Shown one piece after another: positions 2,364 to 60,378 of a stretch of 64,000 bases of DNA. The position numbers and the translations under genes are program-made. The notes below the pieces were generated by a model. The model searched no databases. It saw nothing but the letters and a program-made list of their open reading frames with translations, and had not been told where the DNA came from. How positions within the stretch are numbered: position 1 is the stretch's first letter; each line of letters starts with the position of its first letter. The stretch is from the NCBI RefSeq assembly GCF_056712565.1, contig NZ_CM160072.1; one strand, written 5' to 3'.

Positions 2364-2985
2364 AACTGCCATCCGGCTGGCGGGTAAACAGGACCTGTTG
2401 ATTATTCCCCGTATCAATGGTTAAGCCCGTCACCACGCCGCTGGCGTTCTGGCGGATTTTCACCATCTGCCCGTTTTGCAAATTACTCAGTGGCTTATCC
2501 GCGCCTTCTACCTGCGCCATGGCATAGACATCGGTAGCGGGCAGTCCGTGGTCGCGGAACAGCTGCGCCATCGTTTTACCGGGTTCGACACGATAGGAGC
2601 GCCATTGATTATCAATTCCGCTATCTGGCTGGAATGGTTGCGTATGGGTGGTTTGCGGCTGCTCTTCTGGTTGGCCTTCCTGTATTGGTTCTGGAGCGAC
2701 CGGAGCCACCTGATCAGGATCATTTTGTGGCGTGACTAATTGCGCCCGCAGCTGTTCTTCTGTCGGTGGTTGTGATTGCGACTGAATATCTAACTGTGCT
2801 TCACGCGTCACCACCGGCGCGTTGGGCGTATCATCAGATGGAAGCAGAAATCCGACCACCAATACAATGGCGGCAATAATGATCCCCCGACGATGCATCG
2901 GCGGCAGCGGGTCCATGAAGCGAAAATTGTCCGGCGCGTGCCAGACTTTCTCCAGGGTTGGTTTTAGTTCAAAGCGCCCGGGCAT
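2347..2985 (-). CDS. ytfB: OapA/YtfB cell-division protein (LysM/OapA domain)
   Basis: ORF 2347-3021 trimmed to Met at 2985 ([13 protein letters not shown]...) preceded by AGGAGG; Pro/Gln-rich linker and C-terminal OapA-like region. Confidence 0.85.
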
Positions 2986-3202
2986 GGTTTCCTCCTGCTC
3001 CGCGTCTTGTTCCTCAATCATAGCCTATGAATAAGCTAACGCTATGATGTCCGTGGTAAACCCGCCTTTATTATATTCATACGGGATATTGCTATTGTTT
3101 CTTTTTCCCCGGGATTTGTCATCATTCCCGCGACAAAGTTTTACCCAAAGAAGTGTGGCTGATATGCTGCCCGCTACTTTATACCCTAAGAAAGGAAATA
3201 CG

Positions 3203-3823
3203 ATGACCACCCCAACTTTTGACACCATCGAAGCGCAAGCAAGCTACGGCATTGGTTTGCAGGTAGGGCAACAACTGAGTGAATCTGGCCTGGAAGGGCT
3301 GCTGCCAGAAGCACTGGTTGCAGGCATTGCCGATGCGCTGGAAGGCAAACATCCGGCTGTTCCGGTTGATGTGGTGCACCGCGCGCTGCGTGAAATCCAC
3401 GAACGCGCCGATGCCGTTCGTCGTCAGCGTTTCCAGGCGATGGCTGCTGAAGGTGTGAAATACCTGGAAGAAAACGCCAAAAAAGAAGGTGTAAATAGCA
3501 CCGAATCTGGCCTGCAATTCCGCGTGATCAACCAGGGTGAAGGCGCAATTCCGGCACGTACCGACCGCGTTCGTGTTCATTACACCGGAAAACTGATCGA
3601 CGGCACCGTGTTTGACAGCTCCGTTGCTCGCGGCGAGCCAGCTGAATTCCCGGTTAATGGTGTGATCCCTGGCTGGATTGAAGCACTGACTCTGATGCCG
3701 GTAGGTTCTAAATGGGAACTGACTATCCCGCAGGAACTGGCATATGGCGAGCGTGGCGCAGGCGCGTCCATCCCTCCGTTCAGCACCCTGGTGTTTGAAG
3801 TCGAACTGCTGGAAATCCTCTAA
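3203..3823 (+). CDS. fklB: FKBP-type peptidyl-prolyl cis-trans isomerase
   Basis: ORF 3044-3823 trimmed to Met at 3203 preceded by AAGGAAA; FKBP domain sequence. Confidence 0.9.
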
Positions 3824-4099
3824 GCAGCGCATTCTGTTCCCCTCGAACCAGAGGGGAGCAGGCATTCAGCAATAAACCCTTCAGTTTGCCAAACGGCGCT
3901 ATTTTATGTTGTAAAGTCCCTGTAAGCGTGTATTTTTGTGAGCTGTTTCGCGTTATCACCGTGATATGACACTCACTTTAAACATAAAATTAACATTAGA
4001 TCTAAATCTTAGTATTCATCCCGCGTATTGTTACCTAATATCGATGAGTCCCGATACAGATTCGTCGTATCATAGACTGACTAAAGGCCGTAGAGCCTG

Positions 4100-4112
4100 A
4101 ACAACACAGACA
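4100..4112 (+). promoter_or_regulatory. CA-rich tract in cycA 5' leader, consistent with GcvB sRNA target site
   Basis: AACAACACAGACA about 20-30 nt upstream of cycA ATG; GcvB targeting of cycA is established knowledge, exact site not verified. Confidence 0.4.
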
Positions 4113-4131
4113 GGTACAGGAAGAAAAAAAC

Positions 4132-5544
4132 ATGGTAGATCAGGTAAAAGTCGTTGCCGATGATCAGGCTCCGGCTGAACAGTCGCTACGGCGCAATCTC
4201 ACAAACCGACATATTCAGCTTATTGCCATTGGCGGTGCCATTGGTACAGGGCTGTTTATGGGGTCCGGCAAAACGATTAGCCTTGCCGGGCCGTCGATCA
4301 TTTTCGTTTATATGATCATCGGTTTTATGCTCTTTTTCGTGATGCGGGCAATGGGGGAATTGCTGCTTTCGAATCTGGAATACAAATCTTTTAGTGACTT
4401 CGCTTCCGATTTACTCGGGCCGTGGGCAGGATATTTCACCGGCTGGACTTACTGGTTCTGCTGGGTTGTAACCGGTATGGCAGACGTGGTTGCCATTACC
4501 GCCTATGCGCAATTCTGGTTCCCTGGGCTTTCTGACTGGGTTGCTTCGTTATCCGTGATCATTCTGTTACTGGTTCTAAACCTCGCCACGGTAAAAATGT
4601 TCGGTGAGATGGAGTTCTGGTTTGCGATGATCAAAATCGTCGCCATCGTGTCGCTGATTGTTGTCGGCCTGGTCATGGTGGCGATGCACTTTCAGTCACC
4701 GACCGGTGTGGAAGCATCATTTGCACATTTGTGGAATGACGGCGGCTGGTTCCCGAAAGGCTTAAGCGGCTTCTTTGCCGGATTCCAGATAGCGGTTTTT
4801 GCTTTCGTGGGGATTGAGCTGGTAGGTACAACAGCTGCGGAAACCAAAGATCCGGAGAAATCACTGCCACGCGCGATTAACTCCATTCCGATCCGTATCA
4901 TTATGTTCTACGTCTTCTCGCTGATTGTGATTATGTCCGTGACGCCGTGGAGTTCGGTAGTCCCGGAGAAAAGCCCGTTCGTTGAACTGTTTGTGTTGGT
5001 AGGTTTGCCTGCGGCTGCCAGCGTGATCAACTTTGTGGTGCTGACCTCTGCGGCGTCTTCCGCTAACAGCGGTGTCTTCTCTACCAGCCGTATGCTGTTT
5101 GGCCTGGCCCAGGAAGGTGTGGCACCGAAAGCGTTCGCTAAACTCTCTAAGCGCGCAGTACCCGCGAAAGGGCTGACCTTCTCTTGTATCTGTCTGCTCG
5201 GCGGCGTGGTGATGTTGTATGTGAATCCCAGCGTGATTGGCGCGTTCACGATGATTACAACCGTTTCCGCGATTCTGTTTATGTTTGTCTGGACGATTAT
5301 CCTTTGCTCGTACCTGGTGTATCGCAAACAGCGTCCTCATCTGCATGAGAAGTCGATCTACAAGATGCCACTCGGCAAGCTGATGTGCTGGGTATGTATG
5401 GCGTTCTTTGTGTTTGTTCTGGTGTTGTTGACACTGGAAGATGACACCCGCCAGGCGCTGCTGGTTACCCCGCTGTGGTTTATCGCGCTGGGGCTGGGCT
5501 GGCTGTTTATTGGTAAGAAGCGGGCTGCTGAACTGCGGAAATAA
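4132..5544 (+). CDS. cycA: D-serine/D-alanine/glycine:H+ symporter (APC family)
   Basis: 470-aa ORF, 12-TM amino acid permease sequence. Confidence 0.95.
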   Translation: MVDQVKVVADDQAPAEQSLRRNLTNRHIQLIAIGGAIGTGLFMGSGKTISLAGPSIIFVYMIIGFMLFFVMRAMGELLLSNLEYKSFSDFASDLLGPWAGYFTGWTYWFCWVVTGMADVVAITAYAQFWFPGLSDWVASLSVIILLLVLNLATVKMFGEMEFWFAMIKIVAIVSLIVVGLVMVAMHFQSPTGVEASFAHLWNDGGWFPKGLSGFFAGFQIAVFAFVGIELVGTTAAETKDPEKSLPRAINSIPIRIIMFYVFSLIVIMSVTPWSSVVPEKSPFVELFVLVGLPAAASVINFVVLTSAASSANSGVFSTSRMLFGLAQEGVAPKAFAKLSKRAVPAKGLTFSCICLLGGVVMLYVNPSVIGAFTMITTVSAILFMFVWTIILCSYLVYRKQRPHLHEKSIYKMPLGKLMCWVCMAFFVFVLVLLTLEDDTRQALLVTPLWFIALGLGWLFIGKKRAAELRK

Positions 5545-10833: not shown

Positions 10834-11022
10834 CAGGGACATCCTTTTATCATCGGGAATACGAAAGAAAAGGGAGAATAAACGTCTTACTTATAGAACA
10901 GTGAAGAATGCCACAATTTTACGCTTTGAAAATGATGACACTATCACAGTTGGCGCATTCATTAACGATAGGGTATAAGTAAAACAATAAGTTAACACCG
11001 CTCACAGAGACGAGGTGGAGAA

Positions 11023-11763
11023 ATGTTAGATCAAGTATGCCAGCTTGCACGGAATGCAGGCGATGCCATTATGCAGGTCTACGACGGGACGAAACCGATG
11101 GACGTCGTCAGCAAAGCGGACAATTCTCCGGTAACGGCAGCGGATATTGCCGCTCACACCGTTATCATGGACGGTTTACGTACGCTGACACCGGATATTC
11201 CGGTCCTTTCTGAAGAAGATCCTCCCGGTTGGGAAGTCCGTCAGCACTGGCAGCGTTACTGGCTGGTAGACCCGCTGGATGGTACTAAAGAGTTTATTAA
11301 ACGTAATGGCGAATTCACCGTTAACATTGCGCTCATCGACCACGGCAAACCGATTTTAGGTGTGGTGTATGCGCCGGTAATGAACGTAATGTACAGCGCG
11401 GCAGAAGGCAAAGCCTGGAAAGAAGAGTGCGGTGTGCGCAAGCAGATTCAGGTCCGCGATGCGCGCCCGCCGCTGGTGGTGATCAGCCGTTCCCATGCAG
11501 ATGCGGAGCTGAAAGAGTATCTGCAACAGCTTGGCGAACATCAGACCACGTCCATCGGCTCTTCGCTGAAATTCTGCCTGGTGGCGGAAGGACAGGCGCA
11601 GCTGTACCCGCGTTTCGGGCCAACGAATATTTGGGATACCGCCGCTGGTCATGCTGTGGCTGCAGCTGCCGGAGCGCACGTTCACGACTGGCAGGGTAAA
11701 CCGCTGGATTACACTCCGCGCGAGTCGTTCCTGAATCCGGGGTTCAGAGTGTCTATTTATTAA
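11023..11763 (+). CDS. cysQ: 3'(2'),5'-bisphosphate nucleotidase
   Basis: 246-aa ORF; inositol monophosphatase-family motifs (WLVDPLDGT). Confidence 0.9.
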
Positions 11764-12310
11764 TTAATTTATGCAGCAGGTCCATCACTTGCTGCACCTC
11801 TTCCTGAGTAAGCGCCCCGTCTTTGGCCCATTGCACGCGACCGTCTTTATCCAGCACCACTACAGCGGAACTTTTTTCATCCAGCTGCCAGGCACCGCGT
11901 GCGACGCCATTGCTATCAACAATAAACTGCGACCAGGGATAAAGCTTTTTATTACTCTCCAGACTGCTGCGCACAAACATCCCTGAACCCGGAATCGCGT
12001 CGTCGGTGTTAACAATGGTGGTGGTCTGGTAACGATCGTGCGGTAACTTCGCTGATTTAATCGCTTCAATCAGCGTCGCGTTTTTCTCTTTTGCAGAGGT
12101 GCGACCAGCAATATGTTGCAGTACTCGCACTTTTCCCACTAACTGCGCGCTGTTCCAGGTTTTGTAGCTAAACTGATCTTTATCAAGCACCAACTCGCCA
12201 CGATCGGTGATGCCAATCGGCGGCACTCGCTGACCGGTTTCGAACTGATGTGCGGAAGCCATCATCGGCAACAGCAGGCAGGTGAGTGCCAGAATCTTGC
12301 GTAGGGTCAT
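11753..12310 (-). CDS. ytfJ: periplasmic protein YtfJ
   Basis: 185-aa ORF with N-terminal signal peptide; 3' end overlaps cysQ 3' end by 11 bp. Confidence 0.85.
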
Positions 12311-14262: not shown

Positions 14263-14429
14263 ATCTTATCCGACCTTTCAGGCCAGATCCTCGGAAGGGG
14301 AAGTTGATTAATTTGTGTGAAATACACATTGAAAGCCGATTCGAAGAAAGTGAACCGGCATTTTCAGTGGCTAGTATAGCGTAAGGTACTGTAAAGCCGC
14401 CAGAGGGTTAAAATTCAGACAGCTGAAAA

Positions 14430-14555
14430 ATGAAAAACTGCCTGATGCGCTATGCCGAACAGGCCTACGCAGTCCCCGCAATATATTGAATTTGGACGAT
14501 TTTGTAGGCCTGGCATTTTGTTTACGCCGTATCCGGCATAAACAAAATGCACTTT
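14430..14555. repeat. REP elements
   Basis: GCCTGATGCGC...AGGCCTAC / GCCGGATACGGCG palindromic units between ytfL and msrA. Confidence 0.6.
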
Positions 14556-21319: not shown

Positions 21320-21660
21320 TGCGATGTATCTCGCGATTTTTTTTGTAACTTTCCCATCTTTTGCTTTTCTCTCCGGGCCGCTTTCCATATCTGCAATCGC
21401 ATAAAAAACTCTGCTGGCGTTAACAAATGTACAGGGGTAAAACGGGGACACGCTTTGAACGGTGAGTATGAGTGAGGCCGGCTAACTTCCAGCAAGTGGC
21501 TATGAACAGCAAAATGGTGGTCGAGTTTAGCTTGTTCTTACCGTTCAAGCCTTTCAACTGCTGAAAATAATAATAGTGGAGTAGAGAGTTTATAAATTGC
21601 GGGCATAAAAAACCCTTACTAACCGAAGCCCGGTGTTCAGGGTTATTGCGCCAGAAGAAC

Positions 21661-39905: not shown

Positions 39906-39997
39906 TTGCCAGCAGGTATTATATCGCCATAAATGCTACGAATATTATTGGATTCTCCTTATTATTTGCGGCGCTTTTTTCACTTACCGGAGGTTAT

Positions 39998-40051
39998 ATG
40001 GAACCTGATCCCACGCCTCTCCCTCGACGGAGATTAAAACTTTTCCGGTAA
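39998..40051 (+). CDS. mgtL: mgtA leader peptide (proline-rich, 17 aa)
   Basis: [17 protein letters not shown] in the mgtA 5' leader. Confidence 0.8.
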
Positions 40052-40191
40052 GCCCGTCTTTTCACGGCGTTACCGGATGCGTAAGGCCGTGACGTTTTAA
40101 CGTCCCTGCTCAGCTTTATTACCTTCAGGTAAGGCTTCGCCACGCCTGAAGACATTTCTGTACTGTTTCAGACAGTGCGGAGGGACTCCTT

Positions 40192-45100: not shown

Positions 45101-45189
45101 ACATCCTCCCGGCAAATTGTCCGGCATTATACTCAGCTCTGAGAGAGGATCAAGAAGATGATGCAGTTATAAAGCAAGGCAAACGGTTA

Positions 45190-45678
45190 TCATGAATATA
45201 TATTCAATTTTAATAAGTAATTAATTTGCTTGTGCACCAGGGCTGTACGCTTTACCACACGTGGTGCGACCCAAACGATATTGCTGCCAGCAATCACGCC
45301 AAGAATTTCTGGCAAAGCATGGAAATCAAGGATTCGTGCTACTGCCCGACCATATCCGGCGACGGTATGGATAAGGATAAATTCACCATTATGCTCGACA
45401 CTCAGGACCATTTCAGCGACGGATCGACCTGCGTCAGGTGTGGGAAGTAATTGAGGATTCACCGAATAAATTTTTTGTCCTTTTGTATTTCTAATTTTTA
45501 TGACTCCCAGCAATTTCAGTAGTCGTGAAACGGTTGACTGACTGATACTGTCAAAGCCATGGTTTTGCAAATCGCGGCGGATTTCCTCCTGTGAAAGATA
45601 ACTTTTTTCGGTAATCAGGCGCTGACAGACCGCCAGTTGCTTCTTTTCTTTGGCGGAGTAATCATCGTATTCCTTCAT
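45190..45678 (-). CDS. ArgR-family transcriptional regulator (ADI cluster-associated)
   Basis: ORF 45190-45744 trimmed to Met at 45678 preceded by AAAGGTG; ArgR-like DNA-binding region (SQSTVSRLLK...IRNTKGQ) and C-terminal oligomerisation region. Confidence 0.75.
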   Translation of the reverse strand: MKEYDDYSAKEKKQLAVCQRLITEKSYLSQEEIRRDLQNHGFDSISQSTVSRLLKLLGVIKIRNTKGQKIYSVNPQLLPTPDAGRSVAEMVLSVEHNGEFILIHTVAGYGRAVARILDFHALPEILGVIAGSNIVWVAPRVVKRTALVHKQINYLLKLNIYS

Positions 45679-45793
45679 AATGCACCTTTTATTTATTATT
45701 ACCTGATGATATTTTTCACATTTTATAATGTGAGAGTGGTTCATTTATCACTACACCAGATTTGAAGGCCGCTTTGATAAGCGGCCTGTCGCG

Positions 45794-47197
45794 TTAAATC
45801 ATCGCGGCGATACTCAGCACAATCATATTCAACATCGTGAGAATCAGCAGTAGCGGTGCTACCCATCTCAGATAACGGACCCAGGGTACACGGGCAATCG
45901 CCAGACCGCCCATCACTACCGCAGAGGTTGGCGTAATCAAATTAACCACCCCGGAAGCAGACTGATAAGCGGTCACCACCAGATCGCGTTGTACATGAGC
46001 AAAATCAGCGAGTGGAGCCATTATTGGCATCGTTAACACTGCAAGGCCGGAAGATGAGGGAACCAGAAAAGAGAGCAATACTTCCAGCCAATAGGTCACG
46101 TTGATGAAAACAGTGGTGGAAAGCCCTGAAACCAGATTCTCAGCACTGTGCAGAATTGTGTGCGTAATCATGCCGTTATCCATCACGACCACAATACCGC
46201 GGGCGATGCCGATAATCAGTGCCACACCAAGGAGATCCCGCGCGCCGTCAATAAAGGTACTGGTGAAGGTTTCTTCGCCCATGCGGGCAATGACACCCAC
46301 GATGACCGCAGCTGCCAGAAAGACAGCAGAGATTTCCGCCATCCACCAACCCAGTACCGCTACGCCGTAAATCATAAAGGCAAAGGATGCAGCAAAAAGT
46401 ATCAGGATCGCTTTGCGCGTGGGGGTAAATTCCAGCATCGTTTCTGAACGATTTCCCAGAAAATGCGCCTGGTTTTCAGCCATCTTATCCGCCACGATAG
46501 AGCTTTCCGGACTGTTGCGAACTTTGCGGGCATAACGCATAACCCAGTAAACACAAATCACGTAGCCTACTAACAGCAAAATAACACGCAGCAAAATGCC
46601 CTGAGTAAAGGGGATCCCTGCGGCGTTGGCAGCAATGACGGTAGCAAATGGGTTAATGGTTGAGCCCAGCGTGCCAATGCCCGATCCCAATAACACTGTG
46701 GCGGCAGCGACCAGAGGATCAAAGCGGGCAGCCATCATGACGGGCACCAGCAACGTGTAGAAGGGGAGTGATTCTTCCGCCATCCCATAAATAGTACCGC
46801 CAGCAGCGAAGAGCGCCATCAGGATCGGAATCATCCACTCTTCCCGACCATTAAGGCGAGTTGTCACTCGTTCGATACCGGCATCTATTGCTCCGGTTTT
46901 ATTTACTACTCCCAAAAATCCACCGATGATCAGGACAAACAGCGCGACATCAATCGCTCCCGCAGTGTAGGTTTGATGGTTGTACAAGCCGTCGATGGGC
47001 GCTAACAGGACAGCCGTAATACCCTGTGGTTGCGCCTCAACAGGTGCGTAAGTGCCTGCAACAGGAACTTCCTTTCCCAGTGCGGCATTTGTCACCATCT
47101 GATATTTTCCCGCAGGTACAATCCAGGTCATTGCCGCAACTAACGCAATCAGCACGAACAAGATGGTATAAGCGGTGGGAAATTTGAATTTACCCAT
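45794..47197 (-). CDS. membrane carrier, probably YfcC/DcuC-type anaerobic carrier family; putative arginine/ornithine exchanger of the ADI cluster
   Basis: ORF 45794-47242 trimmed to Met at 47197 preceded by GGAGA; highly hydrophobic multi-TM protein; family assignment from sequence recall only. Confidence 0.7.
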   Translation of the reverse strand: MGKFKFPTAYTILFVLIALVAAMTWIVPAGKYQMVTNAALGKEVPVAGTYAPVEAQPQGITAVLLAPIDGLYNHQTYTAGAIDVALFVLIIGGFLGVVNKTGAIDAGIERVTTRLNGREEWMIPILMALFAAGGTIYGMAEESLPFYTLLVPVMMAARFDPLVAAATVLLGSGIGTLGSTINPFATVIAANAAGIPFTQGILLRVILLLVGYVICVYWVMRYARKVRNSPESSIVADKMAENQAHFLGNRSETMLEFTPTRKAILILFAASFAFMIYGVAVLGWWMAEISAVFLAAAVIVGVIARMGEETFTSTFIDGARDLLGVALIIGIARGIVVVMDNGMITHTILHSAENLVSGLSTTVFINVTYWLEVLLSFLVPSSSGLAVLTMPIMAPLADFAHVQRDLVVTAYQSASGVVNLITPTSAVVMGGLAIARVPWVRYLRWVAPLLLILTMLNMIVLSIAAMI

Positions 47198-47253
47198 AAT
47201 GTGATCTCCATAATCACGGGCATACGCCACTCGTCGACGCATGCCCGTCAGGG

Positions 47254-48258
47254 TTAGTCGCCGAGAGTTGCTACCATCACCGCTTTAATGGTGTGCATCC
47301 GGTTTTCTGCTTCATCGAAAACAATGGAGTGGGCAGATTCAAAAACCTCATCAGTTACTTCCAGTCCTTTGAGGCCGTAGGCCATCTCGATCTCGCGTCC
47401 TACTGTGGTGTGCTCATTATGGAAGGCGGGCAGGCAGTGCATAAATTTGACTTCAGGGTTACGCGTGGCAGTAATCACCTGTTGATTGATCTGATAAGGT
47501 GTCATAAGACTCACTCGTTCTGCCCAGGCTTCTTTTGGCTCTCCCATCGAAACCCAAACATCCGTATAGAGAAAATCAACGTCGTATACGCCTTCTTCCA
47601 CATCCTCTGTCAGGGTGATTCTCGCCCCAGTCACGCTGGCGATCTCACGGCATTGTGTTACCAGCGCTTCATCTGGCCAGAAAGATTTTGGTGCCACCAG
47701 ACGGATATCCATCCCCATTTTTGCAGCACCAACCATCAGCGAGTTCCCCATGTTATTTCGGGCATCACCAAGATACGCAAAGCTCAGCTCTGGCAGCGTT
47801 TTGCCTGGCGCATGTTCCAGCATGGTCATTAAATCCGCGAGGATCTGTGTCGGGTGAAATTCATTGGTCAGTCCGTTCCATACCGGAACACCAGCGAACT
47901 CACCTAATTCTTCAACGATATTCTGACCATAACCGCGATACTCAATACCGTCATACATGCGTCCGAGTACGCGAGCGGTATCTTTCATTGATTCTTTATG
48001 GCCGATTTGTGAGCCGCTGGGGCCGATGTAAGTCACCTGCGCACCTTGATCAAAGGCCGCGACTTCAAAGGCACAGCGGGTACGGGTAGAGGATTTTTCA
48101 AAAATCAACGCAATGTTTTTACCGACCAGCGTTTGTTTTTCGTTTCCAGATTTCTTGGCGGCTTTAAGATTGATAGCCAAATCAATCAGGTATTGAATCT
48201 CTGCTGGGGTGTAATCAAGCAGCTTAAGAAAATTACGGTTTTTCAGTGAAGTAGCCAT
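47254..48258 (-). CDS. ornithine carbamoyltransferase (ADI-cluster copy, ArgI-like)
   Basis: ORF 47254-48285 trimmed to Met at 48258 preceded by AAGGA; STRTR and HCLP motifs; high similarity to argI product at 51620-52624. Confidence 0.85.
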
Positions 48259-48268
48259 GGGGATGTCC

Positions 48269-49213
48269 TTATAAAAATGGATCAAGCGTGGTTATGGGGG
48301 TATCAAGGCGAATAAGAGTGCCTTTGTCTCCGGCGAGAATTTCCGGACCATCTGCAAGAGAGCCGATCCCTGCAATGCCCCGGCACTGACTAACAAACTT
48401 TGCGCAGGCGGTGACTTTCGGCCCCATAGACCCGGCATCAAACTGCATTTCGTTGAGTAATTCCGGCGTGACCTGGGCCAGCGGGCGTTGGGTTGGCTTG
48501 CCCCAGTCGAGATATACTGCGTCCGCATCAGTGAGGATCAACAAGGCGTCAGCATGGATCTGACTTGCCAGTAGCGCGGCTGAAAGATCTTTGTCGATAA
48601 CCGCTTCAATCCCATGGTATCCATCGGCTTTTTCAACCACCGGAACACCACCGCCACCATTACAGATCACCAGATGATCGTGGGCGATCAGTGTCTGGAT
48701 GGCATCCCGCTCGACGATGCGTTTAGGTTGTGGAGAAGGTACGACCCGGCGGAAAGAGTGACCATCTGCTTTGAAAACCCAGCCTTTTTCTGCCTGTAGT
48801 ACCTGAGTCTGAGCGTGGTCATAAATTGGGCCGATGTACTTAGTTGGGTTACTGAAGGCGGGATCGTTGGCATCCACTTCAACCTGCGTCAGCAGAACGC
48901 TGATTTCACGTTGTGGTAGTTGATTTTTCAGCGCCTGTTGTAGCATGTAGCCGATCATCCCCTGGCTTTCGGCCCCCAGAATGTCGAGTGGATAGGGAGC
49001 GACATGGGCATAGGCGCTATTTTGAAGTGCCAGAAGTCCAACTTGTGGACCATTCCCGTGAACCAGTACAACCCGCCAGTGTTGAGTCAGTTGGGCGATA
49101 GTTTTAGCCGCAAGATCGATATTTTTACGTTGGATTTCTGCTTCGAGTGGTTCGCCTCGTTTAAGCAGGGCATTACCGCCGAGAGCGATAACCAGTGTTG
49201 GTTTGTTTTCCAT
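48269..49213 (-). CDS. carbamate kinase
   Basis: ORF 48269-49237 trimmed to Met at 49213 preceded by AAGGAAG; carbamate kinase-like sequence ([10 protein letters not shown]...). Confidence 0.85.
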
Positions 49214-49223
49214 GATCTCTTCC

Positions 49224-50447
49224 TTAGATACCGTCACGATGCAAAGGGCAACTCATGCAACGTGCGCCGCCACGTCCGCGGCCTAATTCATCACCGGGGA
49301 TGGGTAAAACGGTGATGCCTGCTTTGTCATATTTTTCGTTAGTCCAGATGTTGCGCTCGTAGCCCACTACCACTCCCGGCCGAAGCGTGAGCACATTGTT
49401 AGCGTCATTCCACTGTTCGCGTTCTGCCTCAAAGGCATCACCCCCCGTGGTGATTAAACGTACCTGGTCAATACCGAGGGCTTTTTCGATAGCATGGAGG
49501 AGTGTGCTTTCTTGAGTACGTTTCAGGCCGCCGTGACCGTCAGGTGTTAGCGTCCAGCAATTAACATCCGGGCGCACAACTTCGGGATAAACCGAGAAGG
49601 TGTCGATATCGATATGAGTCATAACGGTGTCAAGATGCATACAGGAGCGGTGTTTAGGCAGCTCAACAGCGATTACCCGTTCAGCCTGACGATGTTTAAA
49701 CAATGCCTGAGCAAGAAACTCGATTCCTTGTGGCGTGGTGCGTTCAGACATGCCGATCAACACGGCCCCCCGACCAATCACCAGCACATCACCACCTTCT
49801 AACGTGGCGTGGTCATAATTAATATTCTCGTCGCCGAAATATTTAATAAATTCGCCGCCAGCAAATTGTGGATGCCAGCGATAAATAGCGCGTAGATTAT
49901 TGGTTTCACGTTGGCGAGCAGGTTTTGCCATTGGATTAATCGATACACCGTTATAAATCCAGCATGAGGTATCACGCGTAAATAAATGATTCGGTAACGG
50001 CTTCATAATGAAATCATTAATATCGTGGGTATCAACCACCATATTTTTAATTGAGGCGGGAATTTCACTATAAGTCAGCCCACCACTTAAATGACGAGCA
50101 AGGTCCCGGTGTGACATCTCTGCAAGCCAGGTGCGAACGTCAGTAGCAAACGTAGGGCCGAGTCGGTAATCTGATATTTGTGTTTCCAGTAACCAGCTTT
50201 TGGCTTCCGGGATATCCAATGTTTGTGTTAGTAAATCAGTGAGTAACAGAACTTCTATCCCTTGCTGGCGCAGCGTATTGGCGAAAATATCATGCTCTTC
50301 ACCTGCCCGCTCAACGGACAATACATCGTCAAATAACAACTCCTGGCAATTGGATGGTGTTAGACGTTTCAGACTGAGATTTGGGCGATGCAACATAACG
50401 CTGCGTAGTTGTCCAATTTCAGAACCAACATAATGCTTTTCCATCAT
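49224..50447 (-). CDS. arginine deiminase
   Basis: 407-aa ORF; amidinotransferase-family sequence with C-terminal catalytic Cys region (RCMSCPL). Confidence 0.85.
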
Positions 50448-50567
50448 TATTCCTTTAACACTTTTTCAAAAATAAAGAGGAGATGGCTGCAAACAAATTA
50501 AATGCTTGTAGTCAGGTCTGTTCAGTAATTTTCAGATGCAATGATTCAGTTTATTTCTTCCAGAAAA

Positions 50568-50583
50568 TGTGACGACTTTCACA
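50568..50583. promoter_or_regulatory. perfect CRP consensus site TGTGA-N6-TCACA upstream of the ADI operon
   Basis: TGTGACGACTTTCACA read directly, about 120-135 bp upstream of the arginine deiminase start. Confidence 0.5.
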
Positions 50584-51094
50584 CCAGTGATGATATTAAT
50601 AATCGCAGTTAATAATATTTGATGCGGTTCTGATAAATGATAAAGAAACAAAATACGATAATGCATTAATACGCAAATATACGCAGAGTTATTCTTCGTT
50701 GTTAATTGATTGTTTTATTTTTCAGGAAATGCCTTTAAGTATAAAGCATTGATATTTATGTATATTTTAATATTCATTGCATATCTATGCGAAAGAATAA
50801 GGTGATTATTTTTCACAGCACTATTTTCACGGGATAACTATGACAGCACGGGCATTAAAAGCTAAGAAAATGAACTGTGATCTGACTGAGAGTTTTCTTT
50901 TAACATATGCAATAACAAGATATTAGGACCAAAATACATAGCTAAGTTATAAGATTTATGCAGCAAAACTGCATACAAAATTACTCCTGCTTAACATCAG
51001 TACAACATCTCCAGCAATAAACATGCGCAAGGGCAAAACCTGATGATTTTTCTATGGTGAGAGGTGGCTTTTTTTCGTATAAGGAAAGAAGTGA

Positions 51095-51574
<480 letters not shown>

Positions 51575-51583
51575 GTGATCACT

Positions 51584-51613
51584 GCCGGGGGGCGACCTGT
51601 GCCGCCGCCCGGC
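51584..51613. terminator. GC-rich hairpin between convergent tabA and argI
   Basis: GCCGGGGGGCG ... CGCCGCCCGGC stem with one mismatch. Confidence 0.45.
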
Positions 51614-51619
51614 AAAACG

Positions 51620-52624
51620 TTATTTTGCTAATGTAGCGACCATAACAGCTTTTATGGTGTGCATCCGGTTTTCTGCCTGGTCAAAGACAATACTTGCCGG
51701 AGATTCAAAGACTTCATCGGTGACTTCCATTCCACCATACAGACCGAATTCTGCGGCCATTTTTTTACCCAGCGTGGTTTGCTCATCATGAAATGCAGGC
51801 AGACAGTGGAGGAACTTAACCTGCGAATTACCGGTCAGGGCCATCATTTTGCTATTCACCTGATAGTCACGCAGCAGGGCAATACGCTCCGCCCATTTCT
51901 CTTTGGGCTCACCCATCGATACCCAGACATCGGTATAGATAAAGTCTGCACCTTTAACCCCAGAGGCGATATCTTCCGTCAAGGTGATTTTACCCCCGTG
52001 TTTTTGTGCCAGAGCACTGCATTCGGCGACCAGCGCAGCTTCCGGCCAGCATGCCTGTGGCGCGACCAGACGCAAATCCAGACCGGTAAGCGCCGCAGCT
52101 TCGAGCATCGAATTGCCCATGTTGTTACGCGCGTCACCTGCATAGACCAGCGTCATTTCGTTGAATGCTTTGCCGGGCAAATGCTCCTGCATGGTGAGGA
52201 GATCCGCCAGCAGCTGCGTGGGGTGGAACTCATTGGTCAGGCCGTTCCATACTGGCACGCCAGCGTATTCCGCCAGTGTTTCGACAATCTCCTGACCATA
52301 GCCGCGATACTGAATACCGTCATACATGCGACCAAGCACGCGGGCAGTGTCTTTAATCGACTCTTTGTGACCAATCTGGCTGCCGCTTGGGCCGAGATAA
52401 GTAACGCGAGCACCCTGGTCATATGCGGCAACTTCGAAAGAGCATCGGGTACGGGTCGAGTCTTTTTCGAAGATGAGCGCGATGTTTTTGCCAGTGAGTC
52501 TGGCTTCTTCTTTACCGCTTTTCTTATCGGCTTTCAGCTTCGCGGCTAACTGCAACAAGCTGTTGAGTTCAGCTGGCGTGAAATCGAGTAATTTCAGGAA
52601 ATGCTTATGATAAAACCCGGACAT
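51620..52624 (-). CDS. argI: ornithine carbamoyltransferase (anabolic)
   Basis: ORF 51620-52828 trimmed to Met at 52624 ([13 protein letters not shown]); 334 aa; ARG boxes upstream. Confidence 0.9.

Positions 52625-58863: not shown

Positions 58864-60378
<1,515 letters not shown>

Follow-up and report, generated by a model that had tools for sequence, protein, structure and literature searches.

Hairpins at the boundary between two convergent genes have been described in Escherichia coli as bidirectional terminators. As Wang et al. summarize the work, such a hairpin has been proposed to pause the converging polymerases and so to fix the place at which they collide (Ju et al. 2019 as cited in Wang et al. 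2022, bioRxiv 10.1101/2022.10.23.513370), and these elements are reported to be unlike intrinsic terminators (bioRxiv 10.1101/2022.10.23.513370). The class is characterized by sharp 3' ends of the two transcripts that overlap each other, by independence of Rho, and by a requirement for convergent transcription. Convergent genes whose 3' ends overlap are a recognized minority class that makes up about 7% of the overlaps between well-characterized genes (Palleja et al. 2008, PMC2478687), and conserved short convergent overlaps have been recorded in prokaryotes (Rogozin et al. 2002 as cited in PMC2478687). In the case of cysQ and ytfJ, ytfI has been described as a K-12-specific, H-NS-bound segment between the two genes, and it is absent from that position in strains SE11 and SE15 (Higashi et al. 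2016, PMC4720273, S10 Fig). The presence/absence polymorphism of ytfI is already published, and the gene arrangement is ordinary. The only literature that we found on cysQ and ytfJ together is this figure and a note that the ytfJ promoter is bound by sigma-E/sigma-S in K-12 (PMC4447067), and no paper was found that combines cysQ with Term-seq. Our addition, drawn from a 64,000-nucleotide stretch of DNA (hereafter the window) and its relatives, is a modest one, namely a candidate 3'-end element of cysQ embedded in ytfJ and evidence that small foreign cassettes have been taken up repeatedly at this junction.

Two Convergent Genes with Common 3' Ends

The cysQ gene (11023..11763, + strand) encodes a 3'(2'),5'-bisphosphate nucleotidase of 246 aa and ends in a TAA stop codon at 11761-11763, as identified by its open reading frame, a match to Pfam Inositol_P, and RefSeq annotation. 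The ytfJ gene (11753..12310, - strand) encodes a periplasmic YtfJ_HI0045 family protein of 185 aa, which matches PF09695 (Pfam, 1.5e-77) and for which open reading frame and RefSeq annotation agree; its TAG stop codon occupies 11755-11753. The genes overlap tail to tail by 11 bp (11753..11763, CTATTTATTAA), and this segment contains both stop codons, part of the final three sense codons of cysQ, and the whole of the final two complete sense codons of ytfJ. The 3' end of cysQ reads GTG TCT ATT TAT TAA, with the Tyr codon TAT at 11758-60, and that of ytfJ, in its own sense, reads AAA TTA ATT AAT AAA TAG, the stop codon appearing as cta at 11753-55 on the + strand. The same 11-bp overlap is present in the RefSeq annotation of an E. 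coli genome (L002; cysQ 2124-2864, ytfJ 2854-3411) that is 100% identical to the window over a 701-nt query.

An earlier, sequence-only reading of the window had claimed that the two genes converge with an 11-bp overlap, which the ORF table, the sequence, and the RefSeq annotation bear out, and that no ytfI lies between them, which agrees with the lack of any ORF between cysQ and ytfJ. Neither gene has a different true stop. The stop codons are unambiguous and both proteins are full-length family matches, CysQ covering positions 1-246/246 of NCBIfam NF008182 (526 bits) and YtfJ covering 1-183/184 of TIGR01626 (NCBIfam). Cumulatively, cysQ and ytfJ are a conserved convergent overlapping pair, that is, genuine genes with common 3' bases whose overlap is kept in other species.

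Distribution of the Overlap

Of the 5,418 complete E. coli genomes that matched, about 3,795 have the contiguous cysQ/ytfJ junction. Another search, for which 73 nt of the junction served as the probe, recovered it from 3,794 complete E. coli genomes, 1,360 of which are identical to the window, and ytfI DNA was found in 1,623 complete E. coli genomes that form the exact complement of the contiguous-junction set. The overlap is thus carried by about 70% of complete E. coli genomes and ytfI by about 30%. A YtfJ search with one genome per species yielded 80 Enterobacteriaceae loci, and the overlap is present in 74 of these, of which 41 overlap by 11 bp, 27 by 7 bp, and 6 by 4 bp; among the overlap-bearing genera are Escherichia, Citrobacter, Salmonella, Klebsiella, Raoultella, Kosakonia, Enterobacter, Lelliottia, Kluyvera, Trabulsiella, and others. 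Although the register shifts among genera (4, 7, or 11 bp), the pair is a typical short member of the conserved convergent overlaps, kept in many species and differing from them in nothing substantive. In a distant relative whose YtfJ is 50% identical (L083), the msrA-ytfL-ytfK-ytfJ/cysQ-cpdB synteny is retained with an overlap of 39 bp (3068-3106).

The occurrence of the overlap in nearly all family loci and in this distant relative indicates that the overlap is ancestral and ytfI is derived. Judged from this distribution, most of E. coli and its relatives have the ancestral overlapping arrangement without ytfI, from which K-12 departs, and retention in so many family loci and in most complete E. 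coli genomes places the overlap beyond chance. The implication of the sequence-only reading that the window has the odd state is therefore not borne out. This corrects a K-12-centered expectation, in that it is K-12 that deviates from the usual, ytfI-less overlap.

The L083 YtfJ protein is 201 aa long with a C-terminal extension, and the stem-loop described below is retained at this locus, 23 nt past the cysQ stop codon. A separate search for YtfJ homologs yielded close relatives only. Two other distant loci (L085 and L086) are non-syntenic and have lost the Q-Q...L-L motif from YtfJ, so they are uninformative about the hairpin described below.

The ytfI Insert of K-12

The sequence-only reading had stated, correctly, that K-12 carries ytfI in this interval. 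In a K-12 derivative (L001), cysQ occupies 2624-3364, ytfI 3576-4514, and ytfJ 4577-5131, and the comparison of intervals that the reading had proposed as a check shows that K-12 does not have the same arrangement. The alignment of the window with K-12 breaks off where the cysQ stop codon ends (11763) and restarts at 11768. Because homology breaks between these two positions, the 8-bp, A/T-only spacer that follows the cysQ stop codon and precedes the stem-loop described below (11764..11771, TTAATTTA) corresponds to the empty site of the K-12 insert. This insert (L001 3365-4576) begins directly after the cysQ stop codon, is 1,212 bp long, and has a GC content of 35% compared with 56% in its flanks. 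The two intervals have the same flanking genes and the same junction, but K-12 has these additional base pairs, whereas the window has the uninterrupted allele, with zero sequence between cysQ and ytfJ; the window is not of the K-12-type ytfI allele and is ytfI-less in the same way as SE11 and SE15.

The K-12 insert is bordered to its left by CTATTTACTAA and to its right by CCATTATTTGA, both of them degenerate copies of the overlap segment. Owing to these copies on both sides, both the cysQ and ytfJ open reading frames are intact in K-12, and we infer that the copies are a target duplication. The K-12 YtfJ protein has 184 aa and ends in ...QKLLK, and that of the window has 185 aa and ends in ...HKLINK. 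The insert has its own hairpin just 3' of the cysQ stop codon (GATGGCAGAA...TTCTGCCATC) and a second hairpin after ytfI. The product of ytfI is a 312-aa orphan without a Pfam or NCBIfam family. Its sole PADLOC match, to Cas6b, was rejected as too weak (E = 8e-4, 17 bits, no stretch passing alone).

Two alleles of ytfI, one from the K-12 derivative and the other from a related Escherichia lineage (L006), are 78% identical at the DNA level, and the proteins of the flanking genes at these two loci are about 96-99% identical to those of the window. The divergence of the alleles suggests either that the polymorphism is old or that this H-NS-bound DNA diverges fast.

A Stem-Loop beyond the cysQ Stop Codon

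An inverted repeat, which we call stem-loop R (11772..11796, + strand), has the form TGCAGCAGGT-ccatc-ACTTGCTGCA and lies within the ytfJ codons V-Q-Q-V-M-D-L-L-H. It begins 8 nt past the cysQ stop codon, falls inside the last 14 codons of ytfJ, and has a G+C-rich stem of 9-10 bp. The folding energy is -16.5 kcal/mol (z -4.3) on the + strand and -15.9 kcal/mol (z -3.2) on the - strand, so that the strands are only 0.6 kcal/mol apart. Over 76 overlap-bearing sequences the mean MFE is -18.4 compared with -10.4 in synonymous resamples, and in 66-70% of these sequences the energy of stem-loop R is in the lowest 5% of the sequence's own synonymous resamples. The stem-loop of the window itself does not differ significantly from its synonymous resamples (p = 0.16 for the + strand and 0.32 for the - strand).

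Nowhere else in ytfJ do codons of the same amino-acid class vary as little as in the stem, where they are nearly invariant across genera. In particular, the top codon reaches 94% and 99% at the two Leu positions (CTG), 100% and 88% at the two Gln positions (CAG), and 96% at the Val position (GTG), whereas it accounts for 32-85% at the other conserved Leu columns of ytfJ. The loop codons vary freely, the loop Val column having an entropy of 1.6 bits compared with a median synonymous entropy of 0.97 bits in ytfJ. Stem-loop R is situated in the lowest-entropy 9-codon window of ytfJ, and similarly low values (0.32-0.39) are seen in other windows of ytfJ and cysQ. Furthermore, CTG, CAG, and GTG are all preferred codons (usage in the two genes is 0.80 for CAG and 0.53 for CTG), and codon bias thus contributes to the conservation of the stem.

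In an alignment of 82 sequences, 69 have G-C at stem pair 35/45, whereas G·U and A-U are found there in 5 sequences each, a series produced by two synonymous changes, and another pair has two G·U cells. The evidence for covariation amounts to one pair and probably to one or two events. G·U cells number seven when the stem is read on the + strand and two on the - strand. K-12 has the same stem-loop R as the window although its cysQ is 1.2 kb distant, and in Kluyvera the stem decays even with a new convergent neighbor at the junction.

Stem-loop R resembles a canonical intrinsic terminator in its G+C-rich 9-10 bp stem, its 5-7 nt loop, and its position 8 nt after a stop codon. Unlike such a terminator, it is followed by no U-tract (at least 5 U in 8 nt), the tail being CCUCUUCCUG (CCUCUUCC on the + strand and UAAAUUAA on the - strand), and a consensus terminator scan did not flag it. 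For these two reasons stem-loop R is not a canonical intrinsic terminator. Like the bidirectional terminators, it is a hairpin located where two convergent genes meet, and it is not of the canonical intrinsic type. It differs from them in that it lies inside the ytfJ open reading frame, before the stop codon, and so cannot mark the 3' end of ytfJ. Read on the - strand, the end of the hairpin is separated from that stop codon by 16 nt. An Rfam search gave no match at the gathering score at the junction and none at E <= 1 in 11600-11950.

On the other side of the overlap, hairpin L (11731..11747, CTGAATCCGGGGTTCAG) lies within the cysQ codons L-N-P-G-F-R, 5 nt past the ytfJ stop codon on the - strand. 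It folds at -6.5 kcal/mol (z -0.8) in the + orientation and at -3.6 kcal/mol (z +0.1) in the - orientation, and a simple scan flagged it as terminator-like on the + strand. The 39-nt region that contains it is no stabler than the same peptide re-encoded with the codon usage of the two genes, and a narrower 24-nt test gave a weak or marginal signal, mainly outside Escherichia. With z about 0 and no gain in stability over synonymous resamples, hairpin L is unsupported either as a cysQ terminator or as a ytfJ 3' stem. No supported terminator of ytfJ was found, this weak hairpin being the only one past the ytfJ stop codon. At the conserved CysQ Arg column at 11743-11748, four codons before the stop, 42 of 80 sequences have CGG, 10 have AGA, and 7 have AGG (pooled usage in the two genes is 0.12, 0.03, and 0.01, respectively), and the adjacent Pro is encoded by CCC in 76% compared with 0.14 in the pool. 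This bias toward rare Arg and CCC Pro codons may be related to hairpin L.

Foreign DNA at the Junction in Other Lineages

Several other loci carry DNA between cysQ and ytfJ. In E. albertii there is a 1.5-kb insert of 33% GC that encodes a 385-aa protein, repeat-rich by eye. Citrobacter youngae ATCC 29220 has a 2.1-kb insert consisting of a radical-SAM gene and a gene for a Cys/Gly-rich membrane protein, Kluyvera (L059/L062) has a 0.9-kb gene for a 299-aa protein, and in K. intermedia a 71-bp spacer separates cysQ from ytfJ.

The C. youngae insert is bounded on both sides by a 42-bp direct repeat (40/42 identical) that includes the stem-loop. The copy beside cysQ is perfect, and the copy within ytfJ has a G·T pair. 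A non-Watson-Crick pair within the 9-bp core of the stem is found in 6 of 7 loci with an insertion or spacer versus 7 of 75 loci with the overlap (Fisher p = 3e-5, phylogeny ignored). Only two mismatches fall outside the loop-closing pair, both of them in insertion-bearing Kluyvera.

From these comparisons, the junction (window 11763-11771) looks like an insertion hotspot that has received unrelated DNA in several lineages. It would serve as an example of a convergent-gene boundary that acts in this way.

Discussion

It is clear from the survey that two unrelated convergent genes sharing a short A/T-rich segment with both of their stop codons is the ancestral enterobacterial arrangement. The explanation that we favor, with some reserve, is that the window retains the ancestral uninterrupted site and that stem-loop R is an embedded 3'-end signal of cysQ. 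Because there is no intergenic DNA, such a signal has to lie inside the codons of ytfJ. Stem-loop R would form in the cysQ (+ strand) RNA and would end or stabilize cysQ transcripts. Given the lack of a U-tract, its probable action is to make the polymerase pause, to terminate transcription weakly, or to protect the 3' end from exonucleases. It could also position head-on collisions of RNA polymerases, as in the published bidirectional terminators, and in either case cysQ transcription would be prevented from continuing through ytfJ in the antisense direction. The ytfJ transcripts presumably extend over a short stretch of antisense cysQ, where we assume that they are ended by Rho or by collision. 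The sequence-only reading had argued that the genes have no room for separate terminators. This is right insofar as any signal must be inside the coding sequence of the partner, but a conserved stem-loop does follow the cysQ stop codon, so that one embedded signal of the terminator type, stem-loop R in the ytfJ open reading frame, is probably present for cysQ. Transcriptional interference or shared 3' processing, which the same reading had proposed, is plausible by analogy with the published model in which collisions bring about bidirectional termination (bioRxiv 10.1101/2022.10.23.513370).

The notion that the overlap is an annotation artefact, one of the genes truly ending earlier, can appeal to the frequency of 3'-end misannotation among long convergent overlaps (PMC2478687). 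The present overlap is short and conserved across genera, the stop codons leave no ambiguity, and both proteins fit their curated family models (NF008182 and TIGR01626) to the last residues; a misannotated stop is in effect ruled out. A more substantial objection is that the uninterrupted state of the window could itself be derived, ytfI having once been present and then either excised precisely or removed through recombination with an allele that lacks it. The divergence of the two ytfI alleles, one of which belongs to a separate Escherichia species-level lineage, implies that the insert is old in the genus, and the imperfect repeats of the overlap segment that flank it could mediate excision. 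Nevertheless, the window junction is base-for-base colinear with E. whittamii, Citrobacter, Salmonella arizonae, Klebsiella, and other ytfI-less outgroups, it bears no visible scar, and an insert of any kind is absent from 70% of E. coli and from 74 of the 80 family representatives. We therefore regard a secondary loss of ytfI as improbable.

As regards stem-loop R, CAG and CTG are reverse complements, and the stem could be a by-product of a conserved Q-Q...L-L helix written in preferred codons, with no dedicated signal at all and with transcripts that end diffusely, by Rho on untranslated antisense RNA or by unpositioned collisions. The high usage of both codons is in keeping with this idea, as are the missing U-tract, the nonsignificant result for the window's own stem, the equally low synonymous entropy of other windows, and the near invariance of the stem, which leaves little true covariation. 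Codon preference would not, however, lead us to expect stem Leu codons so much more uniform than those of the other conserved Leu columns, freely varying codons between the stem arms, or a compensatory series from G-C through G·U to A-U by two synonymous changes. Moreover, the stem decays preferentially where an insertion parts cysQ from ytfJ, and in C. youngae the perfect copy is the one beside cysQ. On balance we consider a mere by-product rather unlikely, if well worth keeping in mind. It is quite doubtful that the element acts instead on the other strand or as DNA, either in the ytfJ mRNA (through ribosome slowing near the stop codon or through decay) or as a palindromic protein-binding site. 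The - strand RNA folds almost as well as the + strand RNA, and in most genera the stem is perfectly Watson-Crick and hence equal on both strands, but the G·U cells favor the + strand, a - strand 3' end at the hairpin would yield a non-stop mRNA, and no known motif or RNA family matches.

Returning to stem-loop R as a signal for cysQ, a more comprehensive proposal can be made, which we put forward tentatively. Stem-loop R may be a family-wide 3'-end element of cysQ under synonymous selection, and the A/T-rich overlap may be a recurrent landing site for cassettes, some of which would duplicate the element so that cysQ keeps it; the cargo would be ytfI in E. coli and unrelated genes in E. albertii, C. 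youngae, and Kluyvera. The locus would then be a natural example, of modest value, of a transcription-boundary signal forced into the coding sequence of a neighbor, and E. coli strains with and without ytfI are ready-made controls for studies of collision-based or embedded termination.

Other Features of the Window

Upstream of cysQ, the cpdB-cysQ intergenic region contains a match to the Rfam family ES239 sRNA (10834-10956, +, 157 bits) just before the gene, which may represent the cysQ 5' leader. Other Rfam matches at the gathering score are STnc450 (14324-14381, -), ES036 (14461-14503, -), the Mg riboswitch of the mgtA leader (39983-40098, +), three naRNA4 (repeat-type) elements (23486, 29729, and 58714, all +), and Ysr276 (59623-59817, +).

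The window also differs from K-12 elsewhere. At 1-1960 it has a short-chain dehydrogenase gene (713-1639, -) and a full-length TetR regulator gene (1644-2363, +), and the K-12 counterpart has yjfZ and only a TetR pseudogene fragment. At 21444-21588, 144 bp take the place of a 651-bp K-12 segment with the chpS-chpB toxin-antitoxin genes, and this module is absent. Finally, an arginine deiminase cluster at 45135-51633 occupies the position of yjgH-bdcA-bdcR-tabA-yjgL in K-12 and encodes an ArgR-like regulator, a DcuC-family carrier, an ornithine carbamoyltransferase, an amino-acid-kinase family protein, and an arginine deiminase.
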